From positions 1-64,000 of IMG/VR virus record IMGVR_UViG_3300037714_000266: 64,000 nt of DNA. One strand, given 5' to 3'. Shown piece after piece: positions 3,037 to 57,249 of this stretch (position 1 is the stretch's first letter; the number at the start of each line of letters is the position of its first letter). The translations under genes and the position numbers were made by a program. The notes under the pieces are model-generated. The model was not told where the DNA came from. It worked only from the letters and a program-made list of their open reading frames with translations, and did not search any database. This DNA comes from a virus (taxonomy: Duplodnaviria; Caudoviricetes).

Positions 3037-3335
3037 GGAGCACGGCCGCGACCGAGGCTCCCGTTCTTGGTGCGGTTCGAGGCGGTTCGACTCGTGACCC
3101 TCCGTGGTGCAGACGTCTGCACAACGTCATCATCTACCGGATCACCGGATCGGAACCGCTCGACGTACTGATCGACTGCCTCCATCAGCAAGCTCTTTTG
3201 GCTGTAGCTGAGAACGCCATCGAAACCTGGTGCCGTGGCCGTCCAGCGCTCGCTGACGGGCCCGTCCGGGCTCAACGTCAGTTGAAAGCCTCGGTACTTG
3301 TAGACGCCCTTGGAAACTCGCTTGGCACCGCTCAT
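3024..3335 (-). CDS. Hypothetical early protein
   Basis: GGAAGGAAGG RBS and promoter directly upstream. Confidence 0.6.
   Translation of the reverse strand: MSGAKRVSKGVYKYRGFQLTLSPDGPVSERWTATAPGFDGVLSYSQKSLLMEAVDQYVERFRSGDPVDDDVVQTSAPRRVTSRTASNRTKNGSLGRGRAPWPF
3107..3122. repeat. 16-bp perfect palindrome GTGCAGACGTCTGCAC, copy 1 of 5
   Basis: Read directly; lies inside a CDS. Confidence 0.95.
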
Positions 3336-3359
3336 GGGTCCACCTTCCTTCCGCTATCT

Positions 3360-3387
3360 ATGTTAGCCACTGGATAGCGTTAGTCAA
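3360..3387 (-). promoter_or_regulatory. sigma70-like promoter
   Basis: TTGACT-N16-TAACAT followed by the leader AGATAGCGGAAGGAAG. Confidence 0.7.
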
Positions 3388-3397
3388 GTAGTGGTTT

Positions 3398-3826
3398 TCA
3401 GCGCCTCGACGGTGCCAGATAACCCTTGGCGATCCCATGCAGCACAAGAAGCCACGTGCCGGAAAGATCGCCAAGGAGATCGTGGATGCGCTCGATCACC
3501 TCTTCTCTTTCGGGTGGCCACGAACTCCAGTAGTCGACCCACTCGACGTCTCCATTGATGATGGCCGTGTCTGTGAGAGCGTCGTCGCTACCTTCCACCT
3601 CGACCGCCATCTTGATGGTCACCGAGAGCTTGCCTGAGTGCTCGACGTGCTTGATTCGCCAGATCCCGTGTTCGTCGAACAGGATACTGAAGCGATCACC
3701 GGTCGAAAGGACAACGCAGCCGTCATGATCATAGGCCCCCCACTCGTTGCTCAAGGACTTATCGGAGGACTCGACTTCGACGAGGTCGTCGCTAGCGCCG
3801 TAGATTTTGAGATCCATCACAGCCAC
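3398..3826 (-). CDS. Hypothetical phage protein
   Basis: 142-aa acidic ORF in operon packing. Confidence 0.6.
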   Translation of the reverse strand: MAVMDLKIYGASDDLVEVESSDKSLSNEWGAYDHDGCVVLSTGDRFSILFDEHGIWRIKHVEHSGKLSVTIKMAVEVEGSDDALTDTAIINGDVEWVDYWSSWPPEREEVIERIHDLLGDLSGTWLLVLHGIAKGYLAPSRR

Positions 3827-4200
3827 CCCAGTGCCAAATAGTTGATCGTCAGGTGCATCAAGTTGTCGGCGATGATGAACAGCCAGGTGCTCATCCAGAT
3901 CGGCACCCCAGCGTCATACCCGGTGTTGTTCGTCTTCTCCCAGACCGGCCATGCACTTCGTGGCGCGATGTAGTTCTTTGCGAACACCACGTACCGAGCG
4001 AGCGCCAATCGATCGATCACAGCGTGCGTTCCCACGATGACCGCAAGGGCGACGTGGGACTGCGTCAGGAGAAGGAACGGCAGTCCGTAGAACATGGCGT
4101 GTACGACGGCAGCAACCCAGGACTTCCGTTTCCGGGTCGCCATCCAGTCGCTCTGAAGAACGTAGTCTCCGGCCAGATGCGCAAGAAGCTGTTCCATCAT
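3817..4200 (-). CDS. DUF3307-like membrane protein
   Basis: LLAHLAGDYVLQSDWMA..K, HAMFY and THAVIDR motifs; hydrophobic helices. Confidence 0.75.
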   Translation of the reverse strand: MMEQLLAHLAGDYVLQSDWMATRKRKSWVAAVVHAMFYGLPFLLLTQSHVALAVIVGTHAVIDRLALARYVVFAKNYIAPRSAWPVWEKTNNTGYDAGVPIWMSTWLFIIADNLMHLTINYLALGWL

Positions 4201-5153
4201 TTCACCAATCGATAGCTGTCCCCTGCCATGTCGGTGACTCGGTTCTCGTTCTTGGCGATTCGTGGAACGTGAGAGTCGCAACAATATCCGCGACACCCGT
4301 ACTGCGCGAACTGGGCCTTGGGGTTATGCCACGTCGCAGGGACTAAAAACTTGAAGCAAGCGGGGTGCTCACAGAAGTAGCCGTCAGGAGCCGGCGTCCA
4401 TCCATCGGCCACTGGTATCGGATCCCGCGTCGCGCACTTGACGTAGATCCCATAACCGCCGCTGTCGACGACACCGACGCATACCCCGTTGTCGAACGCG
4501 AGAGTGACCTCTTGAGCCTCGGCATCATCTTCCGACAAGTCCGACACCGCCGTCTTCGGAACGTGCTCATCGCACCGGTACGGAGGGCGTTGACCGGGCG
4601 TGGGTCTGTACCAGGTCGCAGGCTCTCCGCAGCACTGTCCATCCTCTTGGTGCACGCATAGGGCAGCGGCATCCCCGAGGGACTTGCCGCTGTAGGACTT
4701 CCACGCCTCCACGACGGCGCCTGTGGCCGCGCTGACGGATTGGATGACCGTGTGGTCGGGCCCCATAGCGACGCCGCCAGTCCGGTCCACACCGGGGTCC
4801 ATGCCGATCACTCGTCTTGTCCTGTCGTAAACCGCGTCATTGCCACGTACCTGCCGCTGGAGATCGGCAAGGGAGACGGCCTTGGTGGGTCCGATGCCGG
4901 TGGTCTTGAGGTTGCCTTCGGGGATGCACGAAGACCACCACTCCCTTTCGGCGATGAACCTGGGTTCGCCTTCTTTGAGTTTCTTTGGATTGGCGTACTT
5001 GCGCGGGTACACGGCCTTGTACTTCACGCGTTCTTCGCCCCATCGGTTCGCTTCGCCGCACTGAGGGCAGTGTTTGTAGCCGCCTTCGTACCGACCCGGT
5101 TTGTGATCGGGACACGATTCAGGTTTATGGAGATAGTCACGCATCGCTGTCAT
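4197..5153 (-). CDS. Hypothetical protein with two C..C...W...Y.CDxHVP modules
   Basis: 318-aa ORF containing YRCDEHVP and YCCDSHVP. Confidence 0.6.
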   Translation of the reverse strand: MTAMRDYLHKPESCPDHKPGRYEGGYKHCPQCGEANRWGEERVKYKAVYPRKYANPKKLKEGEPRFIAEREWWSSCIPEGNLKTTGIGPTKAVSLADLQRQVRGNDAVYDRTRRVIGMDPGVDRTGGVAMGPDHTVIQSVSAATGAVVEAWKSYSGKSLGDAAALCVHQEDGQCCGEPATWYRPTPGQRPPYRCDEHVPKTAVSDLSEDDAEAQEVTLAFDNGVCVGVVDSGGYGIYVKCATRDPIPVADGWTPAPDGYFCEHPACFKFLVPATWHNPKAQFAQYGCRGYCCDSHVPRIAKNENRVTDMAGDSYRLVK

Positions 5154-5462
5154 CCTCGGGGAGCTTGATCCACCAGCGATCGTATAACCAAACCTTCGGA
5201 CCCGGCACTGACGGATCCCACCACAACGAATTCTCGGCCCGCTTGAACTTCCCAGCTTCCCAATAGAGCACCAGGTTGTCTTGCGGTGGGTACCAGCGCT
5301 TTCGATACAACTCGGTGAAATGCGTGGCGCATCCCTTGAGGCCGGAAGCGGAATCGCGCCACGTCACCTCTTGCTCACACCACGGAGCATCGCAGCGACA
5401 ACGGCCACGCAGCACGCCGAGAAAGCGATTGACCCAGCGTCGAGGTATGTGCCAACCGAATC

Positions 5463-6700: not shown

Positions 6701-6728
6701 ATCCTACAGCATAGATGTAGATAGTCAA
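6701..6728 (-). promoter_or_regulatory. sigma70-like promoter
   Basis: TTGACT-N16-TAGGAT in an intergenic AT-rich patch. Confidence 0.65.
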
Positions 6729-6917
6729 GTCTCCTTTGTACTACCTACGCGGGCCAGAGATGACGGAGGCCACGTACCGTATCCACCCGGCCCTGGAAGC
6801 TGCGATAACCGATCCGCGTCGAGAACCGCCGTAAAGCCGGTGGTAGCGGTAGACCTCGACCGCATACCTGATGGCGTCACGCCGTGGTGTTCTGGAGGCC
6901 GGGCGCGGCATTAGGGA

Positions 6918-7328: not shown

Positions 7329-7346
7329 TCACCTTCTCCTGCTTCT

Positions 7347-9716: not shown

Positions 9717-9723
9717 CCGTCCG

Positions 9724-10185
9724 TCACCTTCTGCCAGTCCACACAGCCTGTGGGGCGCCATCTGAGCACCACTCATGGTTGTTGAGCATGTAGATCACTT
9801 TTTGCGCGTGCCATTTCACCCAAGGTCCACGCCACACACGCATGTACCTCTTTACCTGGTTGAATGACAGCTCCTCACACGAATCTGCTGCCAGATGCGC
9901 AACCTCGTCGTAGGTCAGCCGTATGCCATGGTTTCGAAGAACGGTACGCTCGACCAGCCACGATGCCACTTCGAGTCGCTCGGCGATTGGCGTTGGAATA
10001 GCCATGAGGAGATCGCCCAAATCCACGCTATCGCACGGCCGGTGGATCGGGAACGTCGCCACGTGACACAGTTCGTGGATCACAGATTCTTCGTTCCTGA
10101 TGTCTTTCGGAATGAAGGTGTCGAGCGCAAGGCCCCAGTTCGATGCGACCCATGCGCAGTTTTTCTTGAGTTCGTCGACGCTCAT
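9724..10185 (-). CDS. Hypothetical protein with an HExxH motif
   Basis: VIHELCHVA. Confidence 0.5.
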   Translation of the reverse strand: MSVDELKKNCAWVASNWGLALDTFIPKDIRNEESVIHELCHVATFPIHRPCDSVDLGDLLMAIPTPIAERLEVASWLVERTVLRNHGIRLTYDEVAHLAADSCEELSFNQVKRYMRVWRGPWVKWHAQKVIYMLNNHEWCSDGAPQAVWTGRR

Positions 10186-15522: not shown

Positions 15523-15930
15523 TCACTCGTTTTCTCTTTGTGCAGACGTCTGCACCTTGGGGCGCTTGGGCCAAGGACCACCGCACGACCCACAAACGCC
15601 GGTTTTGGGCACTGGTTCACCAGATCCGACGTACGAATCGAGCCCCAAAGAACTGCAATCGGCACAGGTCATCGAACCGGACCAACCAACGATGCTGTAT
15701 TGCATCGCAGGTCTTTCAGATTCGGGTCTTTCACGGGAATGCTCAGGGCACAGATGGGAATCACCAAACAAATCACGCTCCCAGCCTTTTGGCGTCTCCT
15801 CTACTCCGACGGTGTAAACCGTGCCGAACCGACTCGCGGTCAAGCGGCATTTCGTTATCGCGACGGCGTCGCACTGGACATCATTCGAGTCACGAAACTC
15901 GCACGAAATGACTGCTTCGAATCGGATCAC
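15523..15930 (-). CDS. Hypothetical Cys-rich protein
   Basis: Several CxxC motifs; operon packing. Confidence 0.5.
   Translation of the reverse strand: MIRFEAVISCEFRDSNDVQCDAVAITKCRLTASRFGTVYTVGVEETPKGWERDLFGDSHLCPEHSRERPESERPAMQYSIVGWSGSMTCADCSSLGLDSYVGSGEPVPKTGVCGSCGGPWPKRPKVQTSAQRENE
15540..15555. repeat. 16-bp palindrome GTGCAGACGTCTGCAC, copy 2 of 5
   Basis: Read directly. Confidence 0.95.
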
Positions 15931-27068: not shown

Positions 27069-27341
27069 CTAGACCGAGTATTCGTCCATCACGTCGATGG
27101 GGCCGACCGGAGTGTCGCCGGTGCCAGGCGCACTGGCCTCGATGGTGATCAACTCCAGGGCGATGAGGCGGTTCAGTTCCTTGTATGCCGGAGCACCCTT
27201 GTCTTCACCGAACCGGAGATCCGCGTCGGCGACGCCGGTGGCGACGTTGGCCGAATCGGCGACGGCGAATTGCTGGAATGGGTGCGGCAGATCACCGACT
27301 GCGAAATCCGCGCCGGAGGTGTTTGTGAGATCGAGCAACAT
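27069..27341 (-). CDS. Hypothetical protein
   Basis: GAAAGGAAG RBS upstream; 90 aa. Confidence 0.5.
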   Translation of the reverse strand: MLLDLTNTSGADFAVGDLPHPFQQFAVADSANVATGVADADLRFGEDKGAPAYKELNRLIALELITIEASAPGTGDTPVGPIDVMDEYSV

Positions 27342-27452
27342 GGTGGCTTAACTTCCTTTCGTCGGGTCGTCATCGAGGTTTTGAGGCGCCTCGTTGCCTT
27401 TGTCGAAGTGATTGGAAACCTACCACAACAGTTTAGAAGTCCAGAGTTTCCG

Positions 27453-27468
27453 GTGCAGACGTCTGCAC
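27453..27468. repeat. 16-bp palindrome GTGCAGACGTCTGCAC, copy 3 of 5
   Basis: Read directly; intergenic. Confidence 0.95.
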
Positions 27469-27847: not shown

Positions 27848-28711
27848 CTAAGCTGCCGATGGCCACCTCTTCGCGATACGCCCAACGGTGGTCGACAGTC
27901 TTGCGTCAGTATCTGAATCGGCCTGTCCCAAGGCAAGTTTCCGTGCAAAGCCGCGTCGAAAGCCGTCAATCCCACCGCCTCCGTCCCACGTTTCGTAATC
28001 GTTGAGCTTCATATCCACGAACCAAACACGAGTCGCCACGGCTCCAAGAACGGCCTCCAAATCGCCCGACAACCGCGCATCTGGGTTGATGACCACAAGG
28101 TCGTCTTCTGGGTCATAGACGGCGTACTGACTCATCTGACCGCGTCCACGACCCATCTCACGAGGATCGAGCATGACCGGTAGCGTTCCGCGTGAAAGCC
28201 CAACGGAAGCCAAGAGTTTCGTGGTTGTTTTCAGGACCCCCATTAGTGGCCTCATCTCCGACTCGGAGTAGCCCCAGACATTGATGACCTCGAAGTCGCC
28301 CACCAATGCCTGAGCCGGGGCATCGCCTATCTTGGCTTGATCAATGAGTTTCTGGACATCTCGTACCACCACGAGAAGGTCGCGCATTTTTCGGGCGGCG
28401 CGCTGATCTACACCACTGCGTTGCAGGTTGTGCATCGCCAATCGGAGACGCTGTCGCAGCTTCGCGACCTCTGGCCGATCACCCACCAGGCCGTCTAGAA
28501 TCGGCCTCACCATGTCGAGTAGCTGTTTTATTTTCACCCGGCCGGTTCCGGTGAGCGATACGGCTACCGAGACCTCGTCCAACTCCTTGATGATTCTCGC
28601 GAAAGTCTTGCGGTCCACGTATTTGATCCTTCCCGTTCCATCAAGTGTCAGATCCCGACACTCCTTCGCGTCACTAGAGTCATGACTATCGAAATAACCG
28701 ACGCCAGTCAC
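27848..28711 (-). CDS. Hypothetical protein (true start uncertain)
   Basis: 287-aa ORF overlapping a divergent gene start. Confidence 0.5.
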   Translation of the reverse strand: MTGVGYFDSHDSSDAKECRDLTLDGTGRIKYVDRKTFARIIKELDEVSVAVSLTGTGRVKIKQLLDMVRPILDGLVGDRPEVAKLRQRLRLAMHNLQRSGVDQRAARKMRDLLVVVRDVQKLIDQAKIGDAPAQALVGDFEVINVWGYSESEMRPLMGVLKTTTKLLASVGLSRGTLPVMLDPREMGRGRGQMSQYAVYDPEDDLVVINPDARLSGDLEAVLGAVATRVWFVDMKLNDYETWDGGGGIDGFRRGFARKLALGQADSDTDARLSTTVGRIAKRWPSAA

Positions 28712-30453: not shown

Positions 30454-30530
30454 GGGGCTGTAGCTCAGTCTGGTAGAGCATCCGCCTTTTAAGCGGGCGC
30501 GCGTGGGTTCAAATCCCTCCAGCCCCACCA
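30454..30530 (+). tRNA. tRNA-Lys(TTT)
   Basis: Cloverleaf, loop CTTTTAA, CCA. Confidence 0.9.
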
Positions 30531-30533
30531 TTT

Positions 30534-30608
30534 GCCGCAGAAGCTAGACAGGAACAGCACTCGGTTCTTACCCGAGAGATCCCCGGTTCGATTCCGGGTT
30601 GCGGTACC
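30534..30608 (+). tRNA. tRNA-Lys(CTT)
   Basis: Loop TTCTTAC, TTCGATT T-loop. Confidence 0.85.
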
Positions 30609-30613
30609 GACAT

Positions 30614-30687
30614 TCGGGAGTCGTCTAGCGGTAGGACGATCGGCTCTGGACCGATCAACCGGGGTTCGAATCCCTGCTCCCGAACCA
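30614..30687 (+). tRNA. tRNA-Gln(CTG)
   Basis: Loop CTCTGGA, CCA. Confidence 0.9.
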
Positions 30688-30756
30688 AGCACTCGCTCTC
30701 TGACAACTGAAGAAGGAATTTCCAAAAGGAAGGGGTCACCGAAACCCCTTCCACTT

Positions 30757-30832
30757 GGGTCTGAAGCTCAAATGGGAGAGCGGCCGACTGTTAATCGGAT
30801 GGTTGCGGGTTCGATCCCCGCCAGGCCCGCCA
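30757..30832 (+). tRNA. tRNA-Asn(GTT)
   Basis: Loop CTGTTAA, CCA. Confidence 0.9.
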
Positions 30833-30838
30833 AGTCAT

Positions 30839-30913
30839 AGGTCACGGTCTGGGTAACCGGGTTGGTCTCCAAAACCGACCGTCTGCAACGTTCGATTCGT
30901 TGGTGACCTGCCA
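30839..30913 (+). tRNA. tRNA-Trp(CCA)
   Basis: Loop CTCCAAA, GCCA end; atypical D-arm. Confidence 0.8.
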
Positions 30914-30916
30914 AAT

Positions 30917-30993
30917 GGGATGGAAGATGAAGTGGTGGAATCGCTGGCCTGTCACGTCAGAGTAAGCGGGTTCAACTCCCGTCCGTCCCGCCA
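30917..30993 (+). tRNA. tRNA-Asp(GTC)
   Basis: Loop CTGTCAC, GCCA. Confidence 0.9.
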
Positions 30994-30994
30994 C

Positions 30995-31069
30995 GCTGTT
31001 CTTGCGTAAGTGGTCTGCGCGCTCGGCTGAAGCCCGAGAGGACCGGGTTCGATTCCTGGGGACAGCACC
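30995..31069 (+). tRNA. tRNA-Phe(GAA)
   Basis: Loop CTGAAGC. Confidence 0.85.
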
Positions 31070-31143
31070 GGGGTGGAGTCGCGGCGTGCGACGCCTGTTT
31101 TGGGAACAGGAGGCGGCTGGTTCAACTCCAGTCACCCCGACCA
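31069..31143 (+). tRNA. tRNA-Pro(TGG)
   Basis: CGGGGTG acceptor, loop TTTGGGA, ACCA. Confidence 0.85.
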
Positions 31144-31145
31144 AT

Positions 31146-31219
31146 GTCCTCGATGCTCGAATGGAACGAGCGCCGGTTTCCTAAACCGGAGTGTGCAGGT
31201 TCGAATCCTGCCGAGGACG
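31146..31219 (+). tRNA. tRNA-Arg(CCT)
   Basis: Loop TTCCTAA; no encoded CCA. Confidence 0.85.
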
Positions 31220-31232
31220 CTGAAAGATTTTC

Positions 31233-31320
31233 GGAGCGAGGTTTCCATCATGGTAGATGGCTCCCGGCTGTAACCCGGCAGGTGTTCCACACTGGGGTTC
31301 GAATCCCTCCCGCTCCACCA
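31233..31320 (+). tRNA. tRNA-Tyr(GTA)
   Basis: Loop CTGTAAC, long variable arm, ACCA. Confidence 0.85.
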
Positions 31321-31321
31321 T

Positions 31322-31396
31322 TGGACCGGACGGTCTGGTCGACCTGTTTCGCCTGATAAGCGGAGCGGTCAGGTTCAATTCCTGGCGGTCCAACCA
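31322..31396 (+). tRNA. tRNA-Ile(GAT)
   Basis: Loop CTGATAA, ACCA. Confidence 0.85.
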
Positions 31397-31398
31397 AC

Positions 31399-31472
31399 GC
31401 CTCGCAAGCAGAGACGGCGCTGCACTCGCTTGGTATGTGAGTTAGATCGGTTCAAGTCCGATGCGAGGCTCC
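31399..31472 (+). tRNA. tRNA-Thr(GGT)
   Basis: Loop TTGGTAT. Confidence 0.8.
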
Positions 31473-31476
31473 GTAT

Positions 31477-31554
31477 GGTGATCGATGCCGAAGTAGTCGA
31501 GGCGCGCGGTTGTGGACCGCGTTCAAGCGGGTGCGAGTCCCGTCGATCACACCA
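31477..31554 (+). tRNA. tRNA-His(GTG)
   Basis: G-1 present, loop TTGTGGA, ACCA. Confidence 0.9.
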
Positions 31555-31578
31555 GGGTAGCTCAATCGCATGGTAAAT

Positions 31579-31656
31579 GCCCCCGGGTCTAGGAGTGGTT
31601 CTCCTAGCCGTTCTTATAAGGCGGTAAAGCAGGTTCGATTCCTGACGGGCGCACCA
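31579..31656 (+). tRNA. tRNA-Ile(TAT), atypical
   Basis: Loop CTTATAA, GGTTCGATTCC, ACCA; one acceptor mismatch and a weak stem. Confidence 0.55.
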
Positions 31657-31690
31657 AACTGCTGTCGGTTCAAGTCCGACCTGACCCACC

Positions 31691-31762
31691 CGTCCGGTAG
31701 CTCAGTGGTAGAGCGCTCGCTCGACACGCGAGAGGTCGTGGGATCGTGTCCCACCCGGACGA
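31691..31762 (+). tRNA. tRNA-Val(GAC)
   Basis: Loop TCGACAC; atypical T-loop. Confidence 0.8.
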
Positions 31763-31773
31763 CTACACACAAC

Positions 31774-31847
31774 GGGGCCATCGTCTAACGGGAGGACGTC
31801 TCGCTTGCAACGAGAAAATAAGAGTTCGATTCTCTTTGGTTCCACCA
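31774..31847 (+). tRNA. tRNA-Ala(TGC)
   Basis: G3:U70 in acceptor, loop CTTGCAA, ACCA. Confidence 0.9.
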
Positions 31848-31852
31848 CTTTT

Positions 31853-31927
31853 GCGGGTAAGGCCAAATCGGTGAGGCGTCAGGTTTCCACCCTGAAGAAG
31901 TCGGTTCGATCCCGACTGCCCGCTCCA
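31853..31927 (+). tRNA. tRNA-Gly(TCC)
   Basis: Loop TTTCCAC, TCCA. Confidence 0.9.
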
Positions 31928-31930
31928 CTT

Positions 31931-32001
31931 GTCGCGATCTTCTGGGAAGGACACCGGCTGCAACCCGGTGAAGGAGAGTCCGATTCTCTCTCGCGACTCC
32001 A
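31931..32001 (+). tRNA. tRNA-Cys(GCA)
   Basis: Loop CTGCAAC, TCCA. Confidence 0.85.
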
Positions 32002-32007
32002 GAGTTT

Positions 32008-32080
32008 GCTCTCGACGCCGACAGGAACGGCAATCGGATTTCTACTCCGATCTTTTGGGGTTCGAGTCCTCACGAGAGCG
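32008..32080 (+). tRNA. tRNA-Arg(TCT)
   Basis: Loop TTTCTAC. Confidence 0.85.
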
Positions 32081-32084
32081 CTGT

Positions 32085-32160
32085 GACCGTGTAGCTCGAT
32101 TGGACGAGCGCCTGGCTACGAACCAGGAGGATGGGGGTTCGAGTCCCTCCACGGTCGCCA
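32085..32160 (+). tRNA. tRNA-Arg(ACG)
   Basis: Loop CTACGAA, GCCA. Confidence 0.9.
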
Positions 32161-32163
32161 GAT

Positions 32164-32236
32164 GTCTTCGTAGCTCAACAGGAGAGAGCACCGGTCTCCG
32201 AAGCCGGGGATCGTGGTTCGACTCCACGCGAAGACG
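32164..32236 (+). tRNA. tRNA-Arg(CCG)
   Basis: Loop CTCCGAA. Confidence 0.85.
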
Positions 32237-32240
32237 CTGA

Positions 32241-32312
32241 TGCGGGGTGGTGTACTAGAGCACGCCGGCCTCATAAGCCGAAGGACCTGGGCAGTTCAGG
32301 CGACCGCAACCA
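32241..32312 (+). tRNA. tRNA-Met(CAT), degenerate T-arm
   Basis: Loop CTCATAA, ACCA; poor T-loop. Confidence 0.6.
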
Positions 32313-32314
32313 AT

Positions 32315-32386
32315 CCCGGTGTGGGGTCAGAGGAGACCCAGCGGTTTCATAAGCCGCCAGAGTCGGTTCGAGTCCGATCGCCGGGA
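32315..32386 (+). tRNA. tRNA-Met/Ile2(CAT)
   Basis: Loop TTCATAA. Confidence 0.8.
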
Positions 32387-32390
32387 CTGA

Positions 32391-32467
32391 CGGGGTATAG
32401 CGCAGTTTGGAAGCGCGCCGCATTTGGGATCCGGAGGTCGTCGGTTCGAACCCGACTACCCCGACCA
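32391..32467 (+). tRNA. tRNA-Pro(TGG), second copy
   Basis: Loop TTTGGGA, ACCA; one stem mismatch. Confidence 0.85.
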
Positions 32468-32472
32468 CGTGA

Positions 32473-32548
32473 GTGCGGATAGCTCAGATGGAAGAGCGCT
32501 GGTGTTACATACCGGAAGTCGTCGGTTCGAACCCGACTCCGCATACCA
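32473..32548 (+). tRNA. tRNA-Val(TAC)
   Basis: Loop GTTACAT, ACCA. Confidence 0.85.
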
Positions 32549-32549
32549 A

Positions 32550-32637
32550 GCTCAGATGGCGGAATGGCAGACGCGCTGGTTTGAGAGACCAGTGAGGCGT
32601 AGACCTCGTGAGGGTTCGACTCCCTCTCTGAGCACCA
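32550..32637 (+). tRNA. tRNA-Leu(GAG)
   Basis: Long variable arm, loop TTGAGAG, ACCA. Confidence 0.9.
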
Positions 32638-32639
32638 AG

Positions 32640-32722
32640 GCTCGCGTGGCGGAACGCAGACGCAGCTAGCCTAAACCTAGCCGTCCTTCATGGACGTGGG
32701 GGTTCAAATCCCTTCGCGAGCA
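32640..32722 (+). tRNA. tRNA-Leu(TAA)
   Basis: Long variable arm, loop CCTAAAC. Confidence 0.85.
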
Positions 32723-32727
32723 CTCAC

Positions 32728-32812
32728 GGCTGAGTGGCGGAATGGCAGACGCGCCTGGCCTAGGACCAGGTGATCTAAGATCGTGCAGGTTCGACTCCTG
32801 TCTCAGCTACCA
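32728..32812 (+). tRNA. tRNA-Leu(TAG)
   Basis: Long variable arm, loop CCTAGGA, ACCA. Confidence 0.9.
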
Positions 32813-32813
32813 T

Positions 32814-32899
32814 GCAAGCGTGGCGAAACGGAAAACGCAGCAGATTCAAGTCCTGCTGGCCCGCGAGGTCTTGTGAGTTCGAATCTCACCGCTTGCACC
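32814..32899 (+). tRNA. tRNA-Leu(CAA)
   Basis: Long variable arm, loop TTCAAGT. Confidence 0.85.
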
Positions 32900-32931
32900 G
32901 AAAACCAATAACCAAAGAAAGGAGACGACCG

Positions 32932-33465
32932 ATGCGTACGCTCGTATTGGATCGTTCATACCAGCCGCATCGTGTCGTTTCGTGGCAGCGCGCCGTCACG
33001 ATGCTCTTCCAAGGAAAGATCGAGGTGCTCGAAGAGTACGACGAGGACATTCGATCCGTCTCGATCACAATCAAGATGCCGGCCGTCGTCCGGCTTCTTC
33101 ACCACGTCACTGGACGTAAGAGAGCAATCAAGTTCTCGCGGATCAACGTGGCGACTCGTGATGACTTTCGTTGCCAATACTGCGGAGCCAAACACGCACT
33201 CGGCAAACTCACATACGACCACATTGTTCCGCGAGGCCAAGGCGGCCTGACGACGTGGACGAACATCACGATGGCCTGTTACGGCTGCAACGAGAAGAAG
33301 GGCAACCGAACCCCAGAGCAAGCGGGGATGCGGCTCAAGAAGCTTCCTGTGAAGCCAGAGAGCCTTCCAGTGGTCGTCTTCAGGATCGATCCACAAGCAA
33401 CGATCCCAGAACAGTGGGTCAACTTCATCTACTGGCACGGATCGCTGGATGACGAGGGATCGTGA
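32932..33465 (+). CDS. HNH endonuclease (McrA-like) inside the tRNA array
   Basis: AAGGAG RBS; RDDFRCQYCG...LTYDHIVPRGQGG..TWTN...AC..CN..KGNRTP. Confidence 0.9.
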   Translation: MRTLVLDRSYQPHRVVSWQRAVTMLFQGKIEVLEEYDEDIRSVSITIKMPAVVRLLHHVTGRKRAIKFSRINVATRDDFRCQYCGAKHALGKLTYDHIVPRGQGGLTTWTNITMACYGCNEKKGNRTPEQAGMRLKKLPVKPESLPVVVFRIDPQATIPEQWVNFIYWHGSLDDEGS

Positions 33466-33554
33466 AAAGTCTCCGACTCGATTGAGTCCTTGGACCGGCC
33501 GGCATGGCGGCCGGTGAGAAAAACCTCCCGTCCAAAGGAGGACCATCGCACCAA

Positions 33555-33631
33555 CGGGGTGTAGCTCAGCTTGGAAGAGCGCTCGTTTCGGGAACGAGAG
33601 GCCGCTGGTTCGAATCCAGTCACCCCGACCA
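33555..33631 (+). tRNA. tRNA-Pro(CGG)
   Basis: Loop TTCGGGA, ACCA. Confidence 0.9.
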
Positions 33632-33632
33632 C

Positions 33633-33716
33633 GGAGAGAGAACCGATCCGGGATCGGCCTGGTCTTGAACACCAAGGGACGAGATCGTTGGGGTTCGACT
33701 CCTCCTCTCTCCGCCA
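33633..33716 (+). tRNA. tRNA-Ser(TGA)
   Basis: Loop CTTGAAC, long variable arm, GCCA. Confidence 0.85.
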
Positions 33717-33718
33717 AT

Positions 33719-33804
33719 GGAGACTGATCCGAGCTGGGCTCGGCGCCGCTTGGAAAGCGGTTGGGCGCTTCGGTGTTGCGGTTCGATTCCGTCTGTCTCC
33801 GCCA
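33719..33804 (+). tRNA. tRNA-Ser(GGA)
   Basis: Loop TTGGAAA, long variable arm, GCCA. Confidence 0.85.
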
Positions 33805-33876
33805 TGACCGGTCGGCGGAAGGCTCAAAAACGAGCCTAAGTCATCGACATGACTCACTTTAGACTGGTCGTCTCAT

Positions 33877-33964
33877 GGTAACTGAATCGAGCAAGGCTCG
33901 GACCCCGTTGCTAGCGGGTGTGACGTCGTAAGGCGTTGGGGATCAAGACCTCCGGTTACCGCCA
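33877..33964 (+). tRNA. tRNA-Ser(GCT)
   Basis: Loop TTGCTAG, long variable arm, GCCA. Confidence 0.8.
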
Positions 33965-34003
33965 TGCGGATGTAGCTCAGTTGGAAGAGCGCGATCTTGC
34001 CAA

Positions 34004-34574
34004 CGGCTACGGGTTCGAATACGGTGTCGTATGGGACAACCAGCGCGGTGGAACGGGAGACACGTTTACTATACCGCCTCTGATTACCCGCGGGTTCTTT
34101 GGCCAGAACATCCTATGGCGAAGAGCGATGGGATGGTTCGTATTCATCGGGCGGTGGCGGCTGAAGCGGCCGGCCGACCGCTCCGACCAAGCGAGCACGT
34201 ACACCACAAAAATGGCGTTCGGAACGACTGGCGTGCCGACAACCTGGAAATATGCTCTCCCACGGAACACCGCATCAAGCACGCGATGCAGCAGCGCGTT
34301 ACTTTCGGTTGTGCAAGTTGCGGGATAGAGGTCGTGCGCGCACGTTCGCATGTGCGAGGCGAGAAGTCATACTGCTCGCATAAGTGCGCGCACAAGGCTA
34401 CTGAACGTACCAGGTACCCCGACAATGATGAGCTGGCAAAGTGGGTATGGCGAGAGCCGCTCACGGCGATCGCAGTGAAACTCGGCGTGTCCGATAAAGC
34501 GCTAGCCAAGAGGTGTAAGATTCGGAAGATTTCGACCCCGGGTCGGGGGTACTGGTCTAAGCGGCGATAGGTTC
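34004..34574 (+). mobile_element. HNH-carrying insertion/intron-like element at tRNA position 38/39
   Basis: Clean insertion without target duplication; 27 nt before and 4 nt after the HNH ORF. Confidence 0.75.
34031..34570 (+). CDS. HNH homing endonuclease
   Basis: HRAVAAEAAGRPL.PSEHVHHKNG.R.D.R.DNLE...H; CxxC/CxxxC zinc finger; HTH-like tail LGVSDKALAKRC...PGRGYW. Confidence 0.9.
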   Translation: MGQPARWNGRHVYYTASDYPRVLWPEHPMAKSDGMVRIHRAVAAEAAGRPLRPSEHVHHKNGVRNDWRADNLEICSPTEHRIKHAMQQRVTFGCASCGIEVVRARSHVRGEKSYCSHKCAHKATERTRYPDNDELAKWVWREPLTAIAVKLGVSDKALAKRCKIRKISTPGRGYWSKRR

Positions 34575-34614
34575 GGTCGAGGCCATGGGTTCGAGCCCCA
34601 TTATCCGCTCCAAT

Positions 34615-34690
34615 GTCCCCGTCATCTAGTGGCTCAGGATGCTGGCCCCTCAAGCCGGTCACAACGGTTCAAATCCGTTCGGGGACGCCA
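34615..34690 (+). tRNA. tRNA-Glu(CTC)
   Basis: Loop CCCTCAA, GCCA. Confidence 0.9.
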
Positions 34691-34691
34691 A

Positions 34692-34778
34692 GGAAGGTGA
34701 AGACTCAGTGGTGGGTCACCCGTTTCGAAAGCGGGGTTACGCGCAAGCGTAAGGGGTTCGACTCCTCCTCCTTCCACC
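34692..34778 (+). tRNA. tRNA-Ser(CGA)
   Basis: Loop TTCGAAA, long variable arm. Confidence 0.85.
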
Positions 34779-34782
34779 GTCA

Positions 34783-34856
34783 GGCCCTGTCGTCTATTGG
34801 TTAGGATCGGAGTCTTTCAACCTCCGGAACGGGGTTCGATTCCCCGCAGGGTCACC
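34783..34856 (+). tRNA. tRNA-Glu(TTC)
   Basis: Loop CTTTCAA. Confidence 0.85.
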
Positions 34857-34872
34857 TCGGGAAATTCCTTCG

Positions 34873-34949
34873 GCCGGTGAGGTCCCATTGGCAGGGGCGC
34901 CCGTTTTGTACGCGGGAGACTGTGGGTTCGAATCCCTCCGCCGGCTCCA
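34873..34949 (+). tRNA. tRNA-Thr(TGT)
   Basis: Loop TTTGTAC, TCCA. Confidence 0.85.
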
Positions 34950-34952
34950 TTT

Positions 34953-35028
34953 GCCCTTGAAGTCTCAATGGAGAGACGCCCGTTTCGTATTCGGGAGGCG
35001 ATCGGTTCGATCCCGATCAAGGGCTCCA
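34953..35028 (+). tRNA. tRNA-Thr(CGT)
   Basis: Loop TTCGTAT, TCCA. Confidence 0.85.
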
Positions 35029-35029
35029 T

Positions 35030-35102
35030 TGGGACGTCCCGCGGGTCGGGTGGTCGGCCTTTGAAGCCGATGACGGTGAGTTCGAGTCTTCCCGTCCCAG
35101 CC
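35030..35102 (+). tRNA. tRNA-Gln(TTG)
   Basis: Loop CTTTGAA. Confidence 0.8.
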
Positions 35103-42313: not shown

Positions 42314-43897
42314 TCATGGCACCGTGAACACCGTCGCCGACGCGATCATGTGGTCGGTGTCGGCCTCGATAACGTCGGCCGGAACGATGTCGTAGTAATA
42401 ACCGACGCTTGCCGCTGCTGTCACTATAGTCGCAGCTTGCGCGGTTGCTGTGATGTTCATAGTCGCCTGGACAGGTCCGAGGATGTGAATGATGTCAGTG
42501 AGTCGCACATGAATCGGCACGACTTGAAGCATTTTTTGGACGAGGCGCGTCAAAACACCAGCCAGCAACGCGTCCGGGTCCGTAAGTACCTCAGTGGGAA
42601 TAACCTCAATCCGAAGGACCGACGCGCGACACCAATCACATCGTGCGACCCGGTGGCAGTCGTAGACCATGTCAACGATACCGCCAAAGACCGGTGCGTC
42701 GCCCGCATACACTTCGACCTCCCAGTCATCGCCACCGACGTTGACCGGGGTCGTCTCCAAGTAGACGGGATCATCGAACTCGCCGTCGGGGAACTCTGCG
42801 TACCAATACCCGACTGAGAGGAGTTGCTCATCGATCGGCTGACCCACGCTGTTGGCCGTGAACCTGACCGACCACCTACCGTCGGAGAGGTCAGCAGTCG
42901 ACACGATCGTCATCCCTAGGACGTCGAGAGAGAGAGCGATGGCATCGTGCACCGTAGTCCCATCGGGAACCGTTCCAGACGCAGGCGGCTCAACCGGCTC
43001 AGATGCCCAGTTGGGTGTCTCGAAACAAAAGAAATCCAGAGGAATGGTGTCAGCCGGGATCTCGTCAAAGAACGGCTGATCCGGATCGAGGTCCGTGTAG
43101 AGTTTCCCACTGCCTATGGGAAGTTCGTAGACGTTTGCAGCCGGGATAGCAGCCGGTGCCGGATTGCTGATTCGCCATAGGCCAAGAGGAGTAGCTCTGT
43201 AGCCGCTGATCTTGCCGAGGATGTCGTACGCCTTGACCGTACCCTTTAGCGGAAGCCACTGACTGACATTCCGGATGGCGCTGCGCTGGTAAGCTGCCGG
43301 CTCGTGCTGATCGATATCGACGCCGTAGTCGTTACCGAGAAGCTGAATGAGAGCTGGCGGTCGAAGCGTGGCGCCGGCAAACCCCACACCCTCAGTCGCC
43401 TCGGTCGCTGGCAAAGCCGTGCCAAAGAGCCGGATCACGGGGCCGCGGTCGTCGAGTTTGTGAACCGAGTTGACTCGAAACGTGGTCCCAGTAGCGTCCT
43501 CGAAGATCCACCCCACCGAGGCCGCCTGAAGAGGTTCTAAGGGGTCGCTCGGGTCCGGGTCGTCCAGAAACACCTCCACGGTCAACCCTCCCTCAGCAAT
43601 AGCTGGAGGACTTCCTGGGGTTATCTGTGCGGACAGCGGTGTGATGGAGACGTTTTCGTCGAATTGTGTCCTGACGAGATCCGGATCCCTGAGCGAATGG
43701 AAATCAACCACCCGCAGAAGCATCTCTTCAAAAAGCGGCTGTACCGATTCGGAGAATTTCTCCAAACGGTTTCCCTGTGCCGGCTGCCGATCTAGAAACC
43801 GATCGATTTCTGGCAGGTCGTTGAAGAGCACCTGCCGAGACCAATCGAATCTACCGAACGGACCAGAGCCGAACGAGCCGCTTCCAAAACCAGGCAA
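42314..43897 (-). CDS. Baseplate wedge protein (P2 gpI / T4 gp7-like)
   Basis: L.LLG.DYG...RS.I.N..QW..LKGT.KAY; follows the baseplate-J gene. Confidence 0.65.
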   Translation of the reverse strand: MPGFGSGSFGSGPFGRFDWSRQVLFNDLPEIDRFLDRQPAQGNRLEKFSESVQPLFEEMLLRVVDFHSLRDPDLVRTQFDENVSITPLSAQITPGSPPAIAEGGLTVEVFLDDPDPSDPLEPLQAASVGWIFEDATGTTFRVNSVHKLDDRGPVIRLFGTALPATEATEGVGFAGATLRPPALIQLLGNDYGVDIDQHEPAAYQRSAIRNVSQWLPLKGTVKAYDILGKISGYRATPLGLWRISNPAPAAIPAANVYELPIGSGKLYTDLDPDQPFFDEIPADTIPLDFFCFETPNWASEPVEPPASGTVPDGTTVHDAIALSLDVLGMTIVSTADLSDGRWSVRFTANSVGQPIDEQLLSVGYWYAEFPDGEFDDPVYLETTPVNVGGDDWEVEVYAGDAPVFGGIVDMVYDCHRVARCDWCRASVLRIEVIPTEVLTDPDALLAGVLTRLVQKMLQVVPIHVRLTDIIHILGPVQATMNITATAQAATIVTAAASVGYYYDIVPADVIEADTDHMIASATVFTVP

Positions 43898-43908: not shown

Positions 43909-43924
43909 GTGCAGACGTCTGCAC
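43909..43924. repeat. 16-bp palindrome GTGCAGACGTCTGCAC, copy 4 of 5
   Basis: Read directly; fills the short gap between two CDSs. Confidence 0.95.
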
Positions 43925-43925
43925 C

Positions 43926-45458
43926 TCAACTCGTGATGTTGTGTGCCATCACGTCGTTTCCGGTGCCGCCATCGACGACTGGATTCGTCGGTCCAATGAG
44001 CAAACACCCGATCGCTTGGTTGTTCACGGTGTTTGCGGTCAACTCCAGGCCATTGGTGATTCCGGCCTCCACATTCACACCCCTGAACGCACAACGGTTC
44101 ACGGTGTCATCGAACAGGACACCAGACTGCCCACCGACGCCTTCGATGGTCATGTCAGATCCAAGGAGTCGTGTGATGGAATCCTGGATGTGAATACCCA
44201 CCCACGAAGCATCTGCCGCAGCATTCCGGATCTGACCCTCTCCAACCTGCGATCTCGACGCTTGAGCGCTCACCTCGACGCCAATGTTGAACTGATCGTG
44301 AAAATTGAACCCACGCAGATGACATCGGTTACGCAACGCTGCCGCGATGTCGAGACCGTAGGCGACCGCGCCGTTGATCACATGCGGCTGCGTGGCCGTT
44401 GTTCCGCCAACCACCCGCCATCCAATGAGGTCAGCAGCCACAGAGTTGTCCCTAAGCGATGGTGCAGAGAAGATTTCGCAGTTGAGTTGTTTCGTAACAA
44501 CCATGTTGTTCGATACCGAAAAAACACCTCGAATGAAGAGGTTGGTAGCCTGTGTACCACCATACGCACCAAGGAACGTGACCCTGACGCGTTCGCATTT
44601 TGCGTAGTTTCCATTGAGCCTGACGACGTAGTCAGCCGTGTTTCCGGGACCGGTAGGTAACGCCACCTCAACGCCCACATCGACGAGTTGGCTGTCTTCG
44701 CTGAGCGTGATCGCGCTCATGTCGTCAGATGACTTCGTACGGATGATGCTCGCGCCTGCCGCAGCTCCGCGCACACGTACGCCAGCAGGAACGATAAACG
44801 GTACGGTTGCTCCGACTCCGAGGTCGTAAACCCCTGGTCGGATGTAAACCTCTGTGTCACTAGTGGCCGCCGCCAGTGCCGCGGCGAGTTGCGCTCCATC
44901 GCCAATGTCGAGGTAATCGGCGTCGCTGGATACGTCACCGGCCCCGGTGTTGCCAACGATAATGGGCGCCGTCCGTGGATTGGCTCCTCCTGCGCCGCCG
45001 ACCCCTTGTGCCGAGCCTATATTGGTGACCGCGTCGGTGTTGTTGAGAAGCAAACCATTGCGGACATAGAGTCTGTCGCCGATTCGTGTAGCGATCGCAA
45101 ACGCGTCATTCGTCGACGGCACCGTGCTCGACGCTACAATCGCGACATTCGTGTTTGAACCCGGTGCCCGAGACAAGGTTACGTAGGCGGTCTCGCCATT
45201 GGCGATATCGATGTTGCCGGCAGGGATCTGCCACAAGAACCCAGTAATGGGTGCCGTGATCATCAACGCCGAGGCCCACGAGAACGTAGGCGCTGTCCAA
45301 TTGATGACTCCGCCTTCGGCAAGGACGGCGTGACGATCTTCTCGCGATGCGTATCCGACAGCGTCTATCGCATTGACGAAGTCACGAAACGCGTCGAACC
45401 ACGGATCGTCTTCGGCCGACGGATACGGCAGAACCAAACGTGGTGACTGTTCAGCCAT
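43926..45458 (-). CDS. Tail spike with right-handed beta-helix (pectate-lyase-like) region
   Basis: D...L.AAL......VYIRPG.Y lead-in followed by N/G/I/V-rich coil repeats. Confidence 0.65.
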   Translation of the reverse strand: MAEQSPRLVLPYPSAEDDPWFDAFRDFVNAIDAVGYASREDRHAVLAEGGVINWTAPTFSWASALMITAPITGFLWQIPAGNIDIANGETAYVTLSRAPGSNTNVAIVASSTVPSTNDAFAIATRIGDRLYVRNGLLLNNTDAVTNIGSAQGVGGAGGANPRTAPIIVGNTGAGDVSSDADYLDIGDGAQLAAALAAATSDTEVYIRPGVYDLGVGATVPFIVPAGVRVRGAAAGASIIRTKSSDDMSAITLSEDSQLVDVGVEVALPTGPGNTADYVVRLNGNYAKCERVRVTFLGAYGGTQATNLFIRGVFSVSNNMVVTKQLNCEIFSAPSLRDNSVAADLIGWRVVGGTTATQPHVINGAVAYGLDIAAALRNRCHLRGFNFHDQFNIGVEVSAQASRSQVGEGQIRNAAADASWVGIHIQDSITRLLGSDMTIEGVGGQSGVLFDDTVNRCAFRGVNVEAGITNGLELTANTVNNQAIGCLLIGPTNPVVDGGTGNDVMAHNITS

Positions 45459-48625: not shown

Positions 48626-48695
48626 GTAGCGCCACGTATTGCCTATTGAAGAGGCGGGCCCATCCTAACCCATCGAGGCCGCCACGTTGAGTCTC

Positions 48696-55361: not shown

Positions 55362-55376
55362 GGATCTTTTCTACCG

Positions 55377-55567
55377 TCATCGACCCCTGTGAGTCTTGTT
55401 TTTGTTGTGCAAGATTCGCAATTGGTCGAGGTGGGCCTTTTCCTCGCACATGCGCCTGCGCCGACCCGACGGCATCGCCATGATGCTTTCGTAGGGTTGG
55501 TGCAGAGCCTCCATCAGGTAGAAGATTTCCGCTTCGAGCGCCTGGAGGATGCCGAAGGGAAAAAAAA
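55377..55567 (-). CDS. Tail chaperone C-terminal (GT-like) segment reached by -1 frameshift
   Basis: LEAEIFYL...H.....I.AMP..RRR pattern; no clear own start; frame overlaps the U8 run. Confidence 0.65.
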
Positions 55568-56557
55568 GGTCTTCTGTCCCACGTCGAGAACGCCGTTGAA
55601 TTCGGTCTTGCAGTGCTTGCACTCGAACTCCAGGTCGATGTCGATCCCGGGTTCGTGTTCCAGGAACGCCTCGCGGAAGTCCTCACGGTCGCCGCTGGAC
55701 AGCGACTTCACTGCCTGAACAACGGCCTTTGCTCGCGACGACAGCTTCAGCTTCGTCTTCTTCTCGTTGAAGAAGTCGGCCATCCCCAACCGGACGTCAT
55801 GATCTCCCCACTGGGCAAGACGAACGACGATCATGTAAGTCAGGATCTCGTGGTCGATCTCGGTGATGTTGCTCAGAGCTGTGAGCAACTCGTCCTGTGG
55901 GCCGAGCATGACGCGCCACGTCACTTGGATGTTGGAGTCGCGCAGCAGTAGATCGTGAATCCGCGCCGTGGGATCGGGAGACTCGAAGGTCTCCAGTTCT
56001 CCAAGGTTCACGGTGTACTGCTGCTCTTTGCCGCACGTCCGATGACGCGGACAGCAAACGATCATGTCGTAGTGGTCCTTCGTCCTGCGCCAATGCGTGG
56101 TCCGACGAATGCTGATCAGTAGATGAGTGCGACTGCCTGACGGCAGGTTTCGCACCACCTCACGAAGCTTGGATGGTTCGGTGATCGACTTGCCTTCCTC
56201 TGTCGAGATGGACAGCAAGCAATTCGCCATCAGCATCTCCATGCGCTCGATCAGAGATGTTGCGTCGTTGCCTAGGAGATCCTCTTCGTGACCTCCAATC
56301 GATCTGACGTGAACCCGATTGTACAACTCGGTCTTTTCACCGTCGGTTGCGACGTATCCACCGACAATCTGAAACACACCCTCTTCGGGCGCTGCGTCGG
56401 TCGCGCTTTCGTAATCGCCACCGCCTTCAACGCCATCCAACTCCAAGATCCCCGCTTGACCCTGGCCTTCCTTGGCGTCGTCGATAGCCGCCTTCAGTCG
56501 CATCTTCTGAAGCTGCGGTGAGGGAGTGCCCTCTGACCTGACGTTCTCGTTCTCCAT
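55514..56557 (-). CDS. Tail assembly chaperone (baseplate-hub-assembly-like)
   Basis: DR..LLI.IR; CxxxxxC and CKHC; L..GDR...R.......PG.D; ends FFFP directly upstream of the tape measure gene. Confidence 0.75.
   Translation of the reverse strand: MENENVRSEGTPSPQLQKMRLKAAIDDAKEGQGQAGILELDGVEGGGDYESATDAAPEEGVFQIVGGYVATDGEKTELYNRVHVRSIGGHEEDLLGNDATSLIERMEMLMANCLLSISTEEGKSITEPSKLREVVRNLPSGSRTHLLISIRRTTHWRRTKDHYDMIVCCPRHRTCGKEQQYTVNLGELETFESPDPTARIHDLLLRDSNIQVTWRVMLGPQDELLTALSNITEIDHEILTYMIVVRLAQWGDHDVRLGMADFFNEKKTKLKLSSRAKAVVQAVKSLSSGDREDFREAFLEHEPGIDIDLEFECKHCKTEFNGVLDVGQKTFFFPSASSRRSKRKSST
55560..55567 (-). promoter_or_regulatory. Programmed -1 frameshift slippery site (U8)
   Basis: Minus strand ACC TTT TTT TTC CCT versus GAC CTT TTT TTT CCC. 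Confidence 0.7.
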
Positions 56558-56601
56558 CTACTCCTCCTAAAACCTTCTGCTGCTACTAGCGGACGGGCAT
56601 C

Positions 56602-57249
56602 CTACCCGTTGAGTGTCGTCAGAGCCATTACCCTGGACCACTCTTGCTGCTTCTTCTTCTTCCGCTTCACCGGGGCGACACGACGCAATGGAGTTCCTAT
56701 CGGAACCGGCGCCGTAGCGATGTTACCCGTACCCATGACCCCGCCCGTGCCCGCGTGGGTTGCGCCCTGCTTCACGGGACCAAGCACCGCACCAGAGGTC
56801 GTCATTTCAGTTTTGGCGGTCTCCATGCATACCTTGCAGTCGATGTTCACGCCGGGTTCTGAGCCGCACTTCTTGCATCCACCGTTACCGCCGACATTGA
56901 TGAGCGCCATCATCTTTGCGTAGCGACCACCAACCTGTGCAGACGTCTGCACCGCTTCGGTAGCATCCTTGCCGATGGCATCGTCGTCAGATCCGGAACC
57001 GCCGTGCGTTTGGGTTTTTGGCTCCTGCGGCGTATTGGCGTCGGTCTTTTTCCCCTTTGTGGCCTTTTTCTTCTTCTGGCGACGGTATCCAACGATCCCT
57101 TCTTCGCCGCCATCGCCGTCCATGCTGCCGCTCATCTGAAGAAAGAAGGCACTCAGGGGCAGGAATATCTTCCCTGGTCCCATCTTAGAGGTCTTGCCCT
57201 CGGCCCCCACGGGCCCGCCAACGGTCTTGGTTCCACCTGGATACGGCAC
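56602..57249 (-). CDS. Hypothetical low-complexity K/G-rich protein
   Basis: 215-aa ORF with a CxxC pair. Confidence 0.45.
   Translation of the reverse strand: MPYPGGTKTVGGPVGAEGKTSKMGPGKIFLPLSAFFLQMSGSMDGDGGEEGIVGYRRQKKKKATKGKKTDANTPQEPKTQTHGGSGSDDDAIGKDATEAVQTSAQVGGRYAKMMALINVGGNGGCKKCGSEPGVNIDCKVCMETAKTEMTTSGAVLGPVKQGATHAGTGGVMGTGNIATAPVPIGTPLRRVAPVKRKKKKQQEWSRVMALTTLNG
56937..56952. repeat. 16-bp palindrome GTGCAGACGTCTGCAC, copy 5 of 5
   Basis: Read directly; inside a CDS. Confidence 0.95.

Follow-up and report, generated by a model that had tools for sequence, protein, structure and literature searches.

Several systems are known in which a short DNA word recurs along a single replicon. 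Bacillus subtilis carries about ten parS sites, one of them inside spo0J; the IncP plasmids RK2/RP4 carry 12 copies of a 13-bp palindrome, the KorB operator (OB), over 60 kb, which serve a ParB-family cytidine triphosphate (CTP) clamp that represses at a distance; and in the linear plasmid-prophage N15 four SopB-binding inverted repeats are scattered among the phage genes. ParB and KorB clamps load at their sites and cover several kb on either side. The present study concerns a 16-bp perfect palindrome, GTGCAGACGTCTGCAC, in the tailed phage genome represented by the IMG/VR record IMGVR_UViG_3300037714_000266 (78,175 bp, labelled G000; completeness of 41% according to CheckV), the first 64 kb of which constitute the stretch analysed here, hereafter the window. 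The same word was found in a complete relative, C445, which together with G000 belongs to a giant lineage of ~190 kb, and in an unrelated family of ~40-kb temperate phages. It is a genome-wide mark and not a gene-specific operator, and the selection that maintains it acts on DNA, not on protein. It is read here as the recognition site of a two-fold symmetric, highly specific protein that would act on the whole phage chromosome, to which a probability of about 0.42 is given.

The described systems resemble this one in some respects and depart from it in others. With parS it has in common the 16-bp palindrome with an ACGT centre, the several near-identical copies, some of them in genes including (in the 40-kb prophages) the reader's own, and the presence of a ParB-family gene in C445 and most of the prophages; it differs in that the copies are genome-wide and even, whereas parS lies near the origin, in that no ParA was found in the genomes scanned, and in that the ParB-like gene of the giant lineage does not co-occur with the words. 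Like the KorB OB, it is an exact palindrome whose many copies extend over an entire mobile genome, serving a global role and with ParA unneeded at most sites; the sequence is another one, however, and the sites of KorB are found in promoters or close to them, in contrast to a word that here is evenly spaced and in many copies coding. N15 is likewise a phage genome with palindromic partition-protein sites among unrelated genes, although it is a plasmid prophage with SopA/SopB, whereas the small phages described here are integrated, no ParA was found in those scanned, and the giant phage has 18 sites. The L5 'stoperators' and the start-associated sequences of cluster K are also many exact short words, often in stop-to-start gaps, but they are asymmetric, oriented with transcription and intergenic, while the word studied here is symmetric and often coding. 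Finally, the highly iterated palindromes (HIP1) of cyanobacteria are under selection at the DNA level too, but they are words of 6-8 bp at one per 0.2-1 kb, in contrast to words of 14-17 bp at one per 8-14 kb, regular and conserved in position. To our knowledge, parS, the KorB OB, N15 and L5 all lack the combination seen here, in which sites are regularly spaced over ~190 kb, words specific to each lineage stand at conserved positions, and one word is reused by an unrelated phage family. Neither the 16-mer nor its 12-mer core was found in the open full-text literature searched, and searches for dispersed phage parS yielded nothing specific.

Copies of the palindrome in G000 and in a complete relative

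The G000 record contains a tape measure gene, baseplate wedge genes and 34 tRNA genes. A pattern search matched GTGCAGACGTCTGCAC exactly at positions 3107, 15540, 27453, 43909 and 56937 of the window, the five copies listed in a preliminary description of this DNA, and nowhere else in it at up to two mismatches; a sixth exact copy was added at position 72791 of the record, outside the window. No copy with one to three mismatches was detected in the record, of which the word is the top-repeated 12- to 16-mer. Its expected number in the window by chance is 0.06, and five copies were reached in none of 100 dinucleotide shuffles. The gaps measure 11.9-16.5 kb, with a coefficient of variation (CV) of 0.13, and are more even than in 100,000 random placements (P = 7e-4; minimum gap, P = 2e-4). 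The sequences flanking the copies are unrelated from one to another; both the near-regular intervals and the unrelated flanks had been pointed out before. The longest gap harbors the array of 34 tRNA genes (window 30454-35102, plus strand). A sequencing or assembly artefact was ruled out, since open reading frames (ORFs) run through the copies, isolate genomes carry the word, and synteny holds across independent assemblies.

The complete relative C445 (G007; JAJDDX010000500.1) is a 183,466-bp contig, considered a closed genome of ~183.3 kb because of a 141-bp terminal overlap. It was binned with a metagenome-assembled genome (MAG) of the Phycisphaerae, which may be explained either by its host or by a binning error. 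Positions 3.4-78 kb of G000 are collinear with 58-121 kb of C445, with proteins 35-78% identical. Eighteen sites were detected in C445 (12 exact, five with one mismatch and one with two), separated by gaps of 4.2-21 kb (CV 0.43, P = 1e-4 against random placements). All six sites of the shared region match G000 by position: four correspond to copies 2 to 5, as detailed below, 115342 corresponds to G000 72791, and 121527 falls just past the end of the G000 record.

According to our own gene calls, based on ORFs and on the GC content of third codon positions (GC3), four of the six G000 copies lie in ORFs and two are intergenic, and about half of the C445 copies are inside genes. Copy 1 (3107..3122; no strand is assigned to any copy) lies in the minus-strand ORF 3024-3335 and is read VQTSA. 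Copy 2 (15540..15555) is near the 3' end of the minus-strand ORF 15523-15930 (PWP..VQTSA), and its C445 counterpart, 61350, has the same C-terminal context. Copy 3 (27453..27468) is in an intergenic stretch of ~500 bp between ORFs 27069-27341 and 27848-28711, and corresponds to C445 73437, which has one mismatch; just downstream of it, on the minus strand of window 27400-27452, G000 and C445 have a conserved sequence in common, GAAACTCTGG...GTTGTGGTAG, possibly a promoter with an extended -10. Copy 4 (43909..43924) fits between the stop codon of ORF 43926-45458, 1 nt off, and the AGGAGG ribosome site of ORF 42314-43897, a junction that is identical at C445 84312. Copy 5 (56937..56952) is in the minus-strand ORF 56602-57249, with VQTSA in a non-conserved linker, and its counterpart, C445 97183, is in the homologous gene. 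For the window, the earlier count of three copies in coding sequences, each read as VQTSA, and two between genes was therefore correct.

The VQTSA frame is used by 11 of the 12 in-gene copies, the other two frames being those that would read CRRLH or ADVC, and in the two clearest G000/C445 gene pairs VQTSA stands in low-complexity, unaligned linkers, at shifted residues. One tolerated frame together with unaligned linkers argues for selection on the DNA, the word having been fitted where the protein tolerates it. The proposal of the preliminary description to this effect is thus sustained by copies that are syntenic at 35-78% protein identity, with diverged flanks, and that within genes occupy poorly conserved linkers at non-identical residues. 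The all-or-none exactness of the word, its full two-fold symmetry including the centre, and the lack of compensatory variants point to the site of a symmetric and specific protein.

The copies at junctions bear on two other explanations. Dispersed operators of a global phage transcription regulator, acting as silencing or timing units like the L5 'stoperators' or the P1 C1 operators, would account for the several copies that fill the junction from a stop codon to the ribosome site that follows, or that stand beside a conserved promoter-like element where the intergenic sequence is long, as well as for the ~half of the prophage copies that are outside homology-supported ORFs. However, about half of the C445 copies and four of six in G000 are inside genes; two of the six G000 copies are intergenic, one of them by the promoter-like stretch. 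A perfect palindrome so often found in ORFs departs from L5 stoperators. A symmetric word is also directionless, and even spacing is unexpected for operators, so that a set of operators is regarded as decidedly unlikely. The second explanation is a short RNA hairpin, with a stem of 6 bp and an ACGU loop, that would act in processing, in stability or in the control of translation, or else a recombination or mobile micro-element. Copies just upstream of the ribosome site at several junctions would suit control at the RNA level, and the unrelated flanks are also counted in favour. Nevertheless, none of the copies is followed by a T run (a U-tract in RNA) as in an intrinsic terminator, variants break the stem uncompensated, and the loop, itself symmetric, is no less conserved than the stem. 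As for a mobile repeat, such as a miniature inverted-repeat transposable element (MITE) or a repetitive extragenic palindrome (REP), the conservation covers 16 bp only, and the copies are old, syntenic between divergent genomes and free of flanking duplications, while 16 nt is not possible as an in-frame insertion. Hairpin and mobile element are considered very improbable, and these readings all fit the data less well than a protein recognition site.

Other words at homologous positions

Sixteen further relatives were collected by a scan for the baseplate wedge protein. The 16-mer was absent at up to two mismatches from all 13 relative records searched, including three complete genomes of 186-198 kb, although most of the larger records contain a dispersed inverted repeat of their own. 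The complete genome G016 (191.6 kb) has the word GGCAGTCGACTGCC at 24 sites (CV 0.47, P = 6e-5), G018 (148 kb) has GGGCAATTGATTGCCC at 11 sites (spacing P = 0.006), G019 (100 kb) has GCGAAAGTGACTTTCGC at seven, and G013 (82 kb) has CTGGCCCCGGGGCCAG at five; no dispersed word was found in G014 and G015, both complete (0 sites). Across G000, C445, G016 and G018, P values for even spacing range from 6e-5 to 6e-3. Arms of the form GCAG...CTGC are common to GTGCAGACGTCTGCAC and the G016 word, and intermediate variants, GCAGTCGTCTGC, occur in C445.

The places of these words were compared by means of the neighbouring genes. For the C445 sites with a homologous neighbour gene in G016 (n = 15), a G016 site was found within 1.5 kb of the homologue in 11 cases and within 200 bp in six. 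Windows at homologous places contained eight G016 sites versus three expected, and five G018 sites versus 1.5 expected, and the corresponding windows of G014 and G015 had no shared word. As to conservation in relatives, a check proposed in the preliminary description, C445 keeps the word in place and the other 13 records lack it, though most of the larger ones carry different words, significantly often at homologous places. Its view of a genome-wide mark, as opposed to a gene-specific operator, is strengthened by the even spacing and by these other palindromes at homologous places.

A single harmless frame within genes, even spacing, and positions kept across different words argue for a role over the whole genome, with a specificity that drifts along with its reader. 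That the word is read by a protein, and that this reader is dimeric and spreads or organises, is what we infer from these features. Such a dimeric reader would bind about one site per 8-14 kb at fixed positions, the sites being fitted into intergenic junctions or tolerant protein linkers, in the harmless VQTSA frame. From the sites it would load, anchor or spread, covering the whole ~190-kb genome, in the way that proteins of the ParB/KorB type load at specific sites and then spread for several kb; an even spacing of 8-14 kb would fit a protein that loads at each site and covers several kb on each side of it. Site sequence and reader specificity would drift together, so that the positions stay while the word comes to differ from one sublineage to another. 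A broader proposal, put forward tentatively and on balance doubtful, is that the ~190-kb phage family marks its chromosome with ~20 evenly spaced, position-conserved palindromes, rewritten in concert with the reader in each sublineage and with one allele common to unrelated temperate phages, which would represent a new organising or self-marking system outside ParABS and KorB. How ~200 kb of DNA is organised, protected and timed in cells infected by giant phages is largely unknown; regular and exact docking sites, whose positions are kept while the word changes, point to a dedicated genome-wide reader, and the words and positions constitute a natural experiment in concerted co-evolution of site and reader.

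Two of the relatives contain additional dispersed sequences. In G018 (loci L406-L413) a second word, around GAAAAGAAACTTTGC, occupies 18 fairly even positions. In G016 (loci L396-L405) the universal chromosomal parS, TGTTTCACGTGAAACA, is dispersed over five positions, 50277, 83875, 126798, 140581 and 165445, three of the copies being exact and two having one mismatch. No HTH_ParB protein is encoded in the complete G016 genome, which has just a ParB_N-MT-A70 methylase fusion; the parS copies without an HTH_ParB protein of its own suggest the capture of a host ParB.

The identical word in ~40-kb prophages

The exact 16-mer was detected in at least 119 IMG/VR stretches, versus four for a control palindrome of equal composition, CACGTCTGCAGACGTG. 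Matches in bacterial genomes were mostly from Betaproteobacteria (Undibacterium, Duganella, Janthinobacterium, Massilia, Herbaspirillum, Nitrosospira and others), and in five host genomes (3-7 Mb) the copies were confined, with a single exception, to one stretch of 14-36 kb per genome. A host-wide repeat or uptake sequence was ruled out by this confinement of the word to one prophage stretch of the host chromosomes. Most of the word-bearing loci (184/239) form one gene-sharing component. The phages of this family are temperate and ~40 kb in size, and encode a lambda-like terminase, a portal, a head-protease fusion, a primase and a ParB of 600-750 aa. Across 244 distinct contexts, conservation stops at 16 bp. 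Since the word is present in culturable lysogens (Duganella, Janthinobacterium, Undibacterium, Nitrosospira), its function is directly testable.

The occurrence in host chromosomes bears on the possibility that a host DNA-binding protein was recruited, the word being a 'password' of the host of each sublineage, with hosts shared by the giant phage and the 40-kb prophages. G016, with five canonical parS and no HTH_ParB protein in a complete genome, would be a precedent, no phage reader was found, and the words vary between sublineages, all of which would agree with a reader supplied by the host. On the other hand, the host chromosomes of the prophage carriers are without copies outside the prophage, and a host protein lacking sites of its own would be odd; moreover, C445 was binned with a Phycisphaerae MAG, not with Betaproteobacteria. 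A host reader is kept as a live alternative, with a rather low probability.

The ParB of the prophages is canonical (GERRxRA, ENLQRxD and HTH_ParB, with a score above the TIGR00180 cut-off) and also bears SADVCTDPxCF, a motif resembling a zinc ribbon. The 16-mer is inside parB in ~22 of 36 loci, where it encodes S/G-ADVC-T, and the codons are the same though the proteins are only ~30% identical. Near variants of the form GTGCA-N-ACGT-N-TGCAC predominate in loci chosen by ParB homology alone. Seven of the ParB-chosen loci (L271, L272, L275, L276, L278, L293 and L312) share another perfect palindrome, GTGCACACGTGTGCAC, and the copy inside parB in these genomes reads GTGCAGACGTGTGCAC, with a synonymous change of GTC to GTG, the synonymous position being the only one to have moved along with the other sites.

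Candidate readers in the giant lineage

No match to Pfam ParB_N was obtained in the giant lineage, and neither a canonical ParB_N nor phrog_4715 was present in the 78-kb G000 record, which corresponds to no more than 58-121 kb of C445. Profile comparison led to a ParB-like protein of 301 aa in C445 (P0001, 163699-164604; hhalign probability 43%), with GRRR and LNEHRED motifs, a match to phrog_1033 (E = 6e-20) and a weak HTH_ParB. Its family profile matches the prophage ParB at 1e-20 to 1e-7, the sole family common to both lineages, and the nearest C445 site is in the same operon, 3.4 kb upstream. A scan of metagenomes for relatives of P0001 yielded short contigs only.

These proteins would be the readers if the words were parS-like loading sites of a phage CTP clamp of the ParB/KorB family, that is, the long ParB in the prophages and the 301-aa protein, or an undetected one, in the giant phage; with no ParA found, such a clamp would silence or organise as KorB or Noc does, and would not segregate. 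The palindrome with its ACGT centre resembles a canonical parS, the prophage ParB has the canonical motifs and carries the word in its own gene, and P0001 has the motifs, the profile match and the operon site just described. The phyletic test nevertheless fails in the giant family, the homologue contexts examined are wordless, some prophages have the word without ParB_N, and between the two ParB types the helix-turn-helix motif is so different that an identical 16-bp specificity is unlikely for them. A ParB clamp is considered unlikely.

Several of the underlying results also count against a recognition site for a dedicated protein, the reading preferred here. A reader was searched for in the giant lineage and none was found. 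Homologues of P0001 are present in the wordless G014 and G015, and none is present in G016, which has its word 24 times; seven contexts of P0001 homologues (72-39% identity), 111 kb altogether, contain no match to the 16-mer with three mismatches or fewer, among them a 14.7-kb contig encoding a 72%-identical copy with a nearly identical helix-turn-helix. Apart from the distant ParB homology, no protein family is common to the giant and 40-kb lineages, and in a comparison by BLAST and hidden Markov models (HMM) of 96 prophage gene clusters with all G000 and C445 ORFs the best E was ~6e-4. Among near-complete prophage carriers, ParB_N was detected in 12 of 15, three carrying the word without it, and among 27 terminase relatives the two-by-two table was 11/3 with the word present versus 7/6 with the word absent, not significant by eye; the link between word and ParB in the 40-kb family is suggestive and loose. 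Spreading, coating and organisation are, furthermore, pure inference on our part.

P0001 was ruled out as the reader by the phyletic and context tests. Phage ParB-fold proteins can serve roles besides centromere binding (PMC13229309, 2026), which fits the failure of this short ParB-like protein as a reader. No ParA-type ATPase (AAA_31, PF13614) was detected in five giant relatives other than C445 and G000 or in 15 near-complete word-bearing prophages, and classical segregation is therefore unlikely. Of the analogies drawn in the preliminary description, that with ParB and Noc survives to the extent that the same word fills ParB-encoding ~40-kb prophages, with one copy within that gene, and finds no support in the giant lineage, whose only ParB-like gene fails the presence/absence test; the search for a ParB or helix-turn-helix gene that it had suggested gave the 301-aa protein of C445, which fails as a reader, and none in the G000 record. 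Its option of a segregation mark is unlikely, no ParA being found in any relative tested.

Other candidates were considered. The gene 27848..28711 (minus strand), beside copy 3, is the sole gene that the relatives have or lack in accordance with the dispersed word, but it has no family match, and its structural model (predicted local distance difference test, pLDDT, of 80) has a weak likeness to zincin peptidases (template modelling score, TM, about 0.27) and no DNA-binding feature; despite the best phyletic pattern, it is a poor candidate for that reason. A DUF3268 zinc-finger protein (C445 31670-32122) was rejected, being present in C445, G016 and one 54-kb phage and missing from 30 ordinary carriers. 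A GHKL ATPase (C445 21257-22777) and a 103-aa gene beside site 30318 occur only in C445 and G016. The minus-strand ORF at window 359-1864 matches transposase PHROGs (TnpB-like); as an RNA-guided reader this gene, which is dead, was ruled out by the lack of a homologue in C445. Readings as a MetJ met box (AGACGTCT core) or as sigma-54, extracytoplasmic function (ECF) or CRP-like sites were dropped, the flanks being random and the variants hitting the core.

Two further features were observed around the ParB-like genes. Directly upstream of that of C445, and coupled to it, is a gene for an SNF2-family helicase that is interrupted by a LAGLIDADG homing-endonuclease domain (C445 164605-167673; L347:9605-12673, minus strand), and this pair recurs in contexts L266 and L356. 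The 14.7-kb contig of a relative, L265, contains two perfect palindromes of 18-20 bp, mutually different, CGCGGAGTGTACACTCCGCG (3282-3301) and GCGGCACTCGAGTGCCGC (9952-9969), the first of which is in the divergent promoter region of the ParB-like operon.

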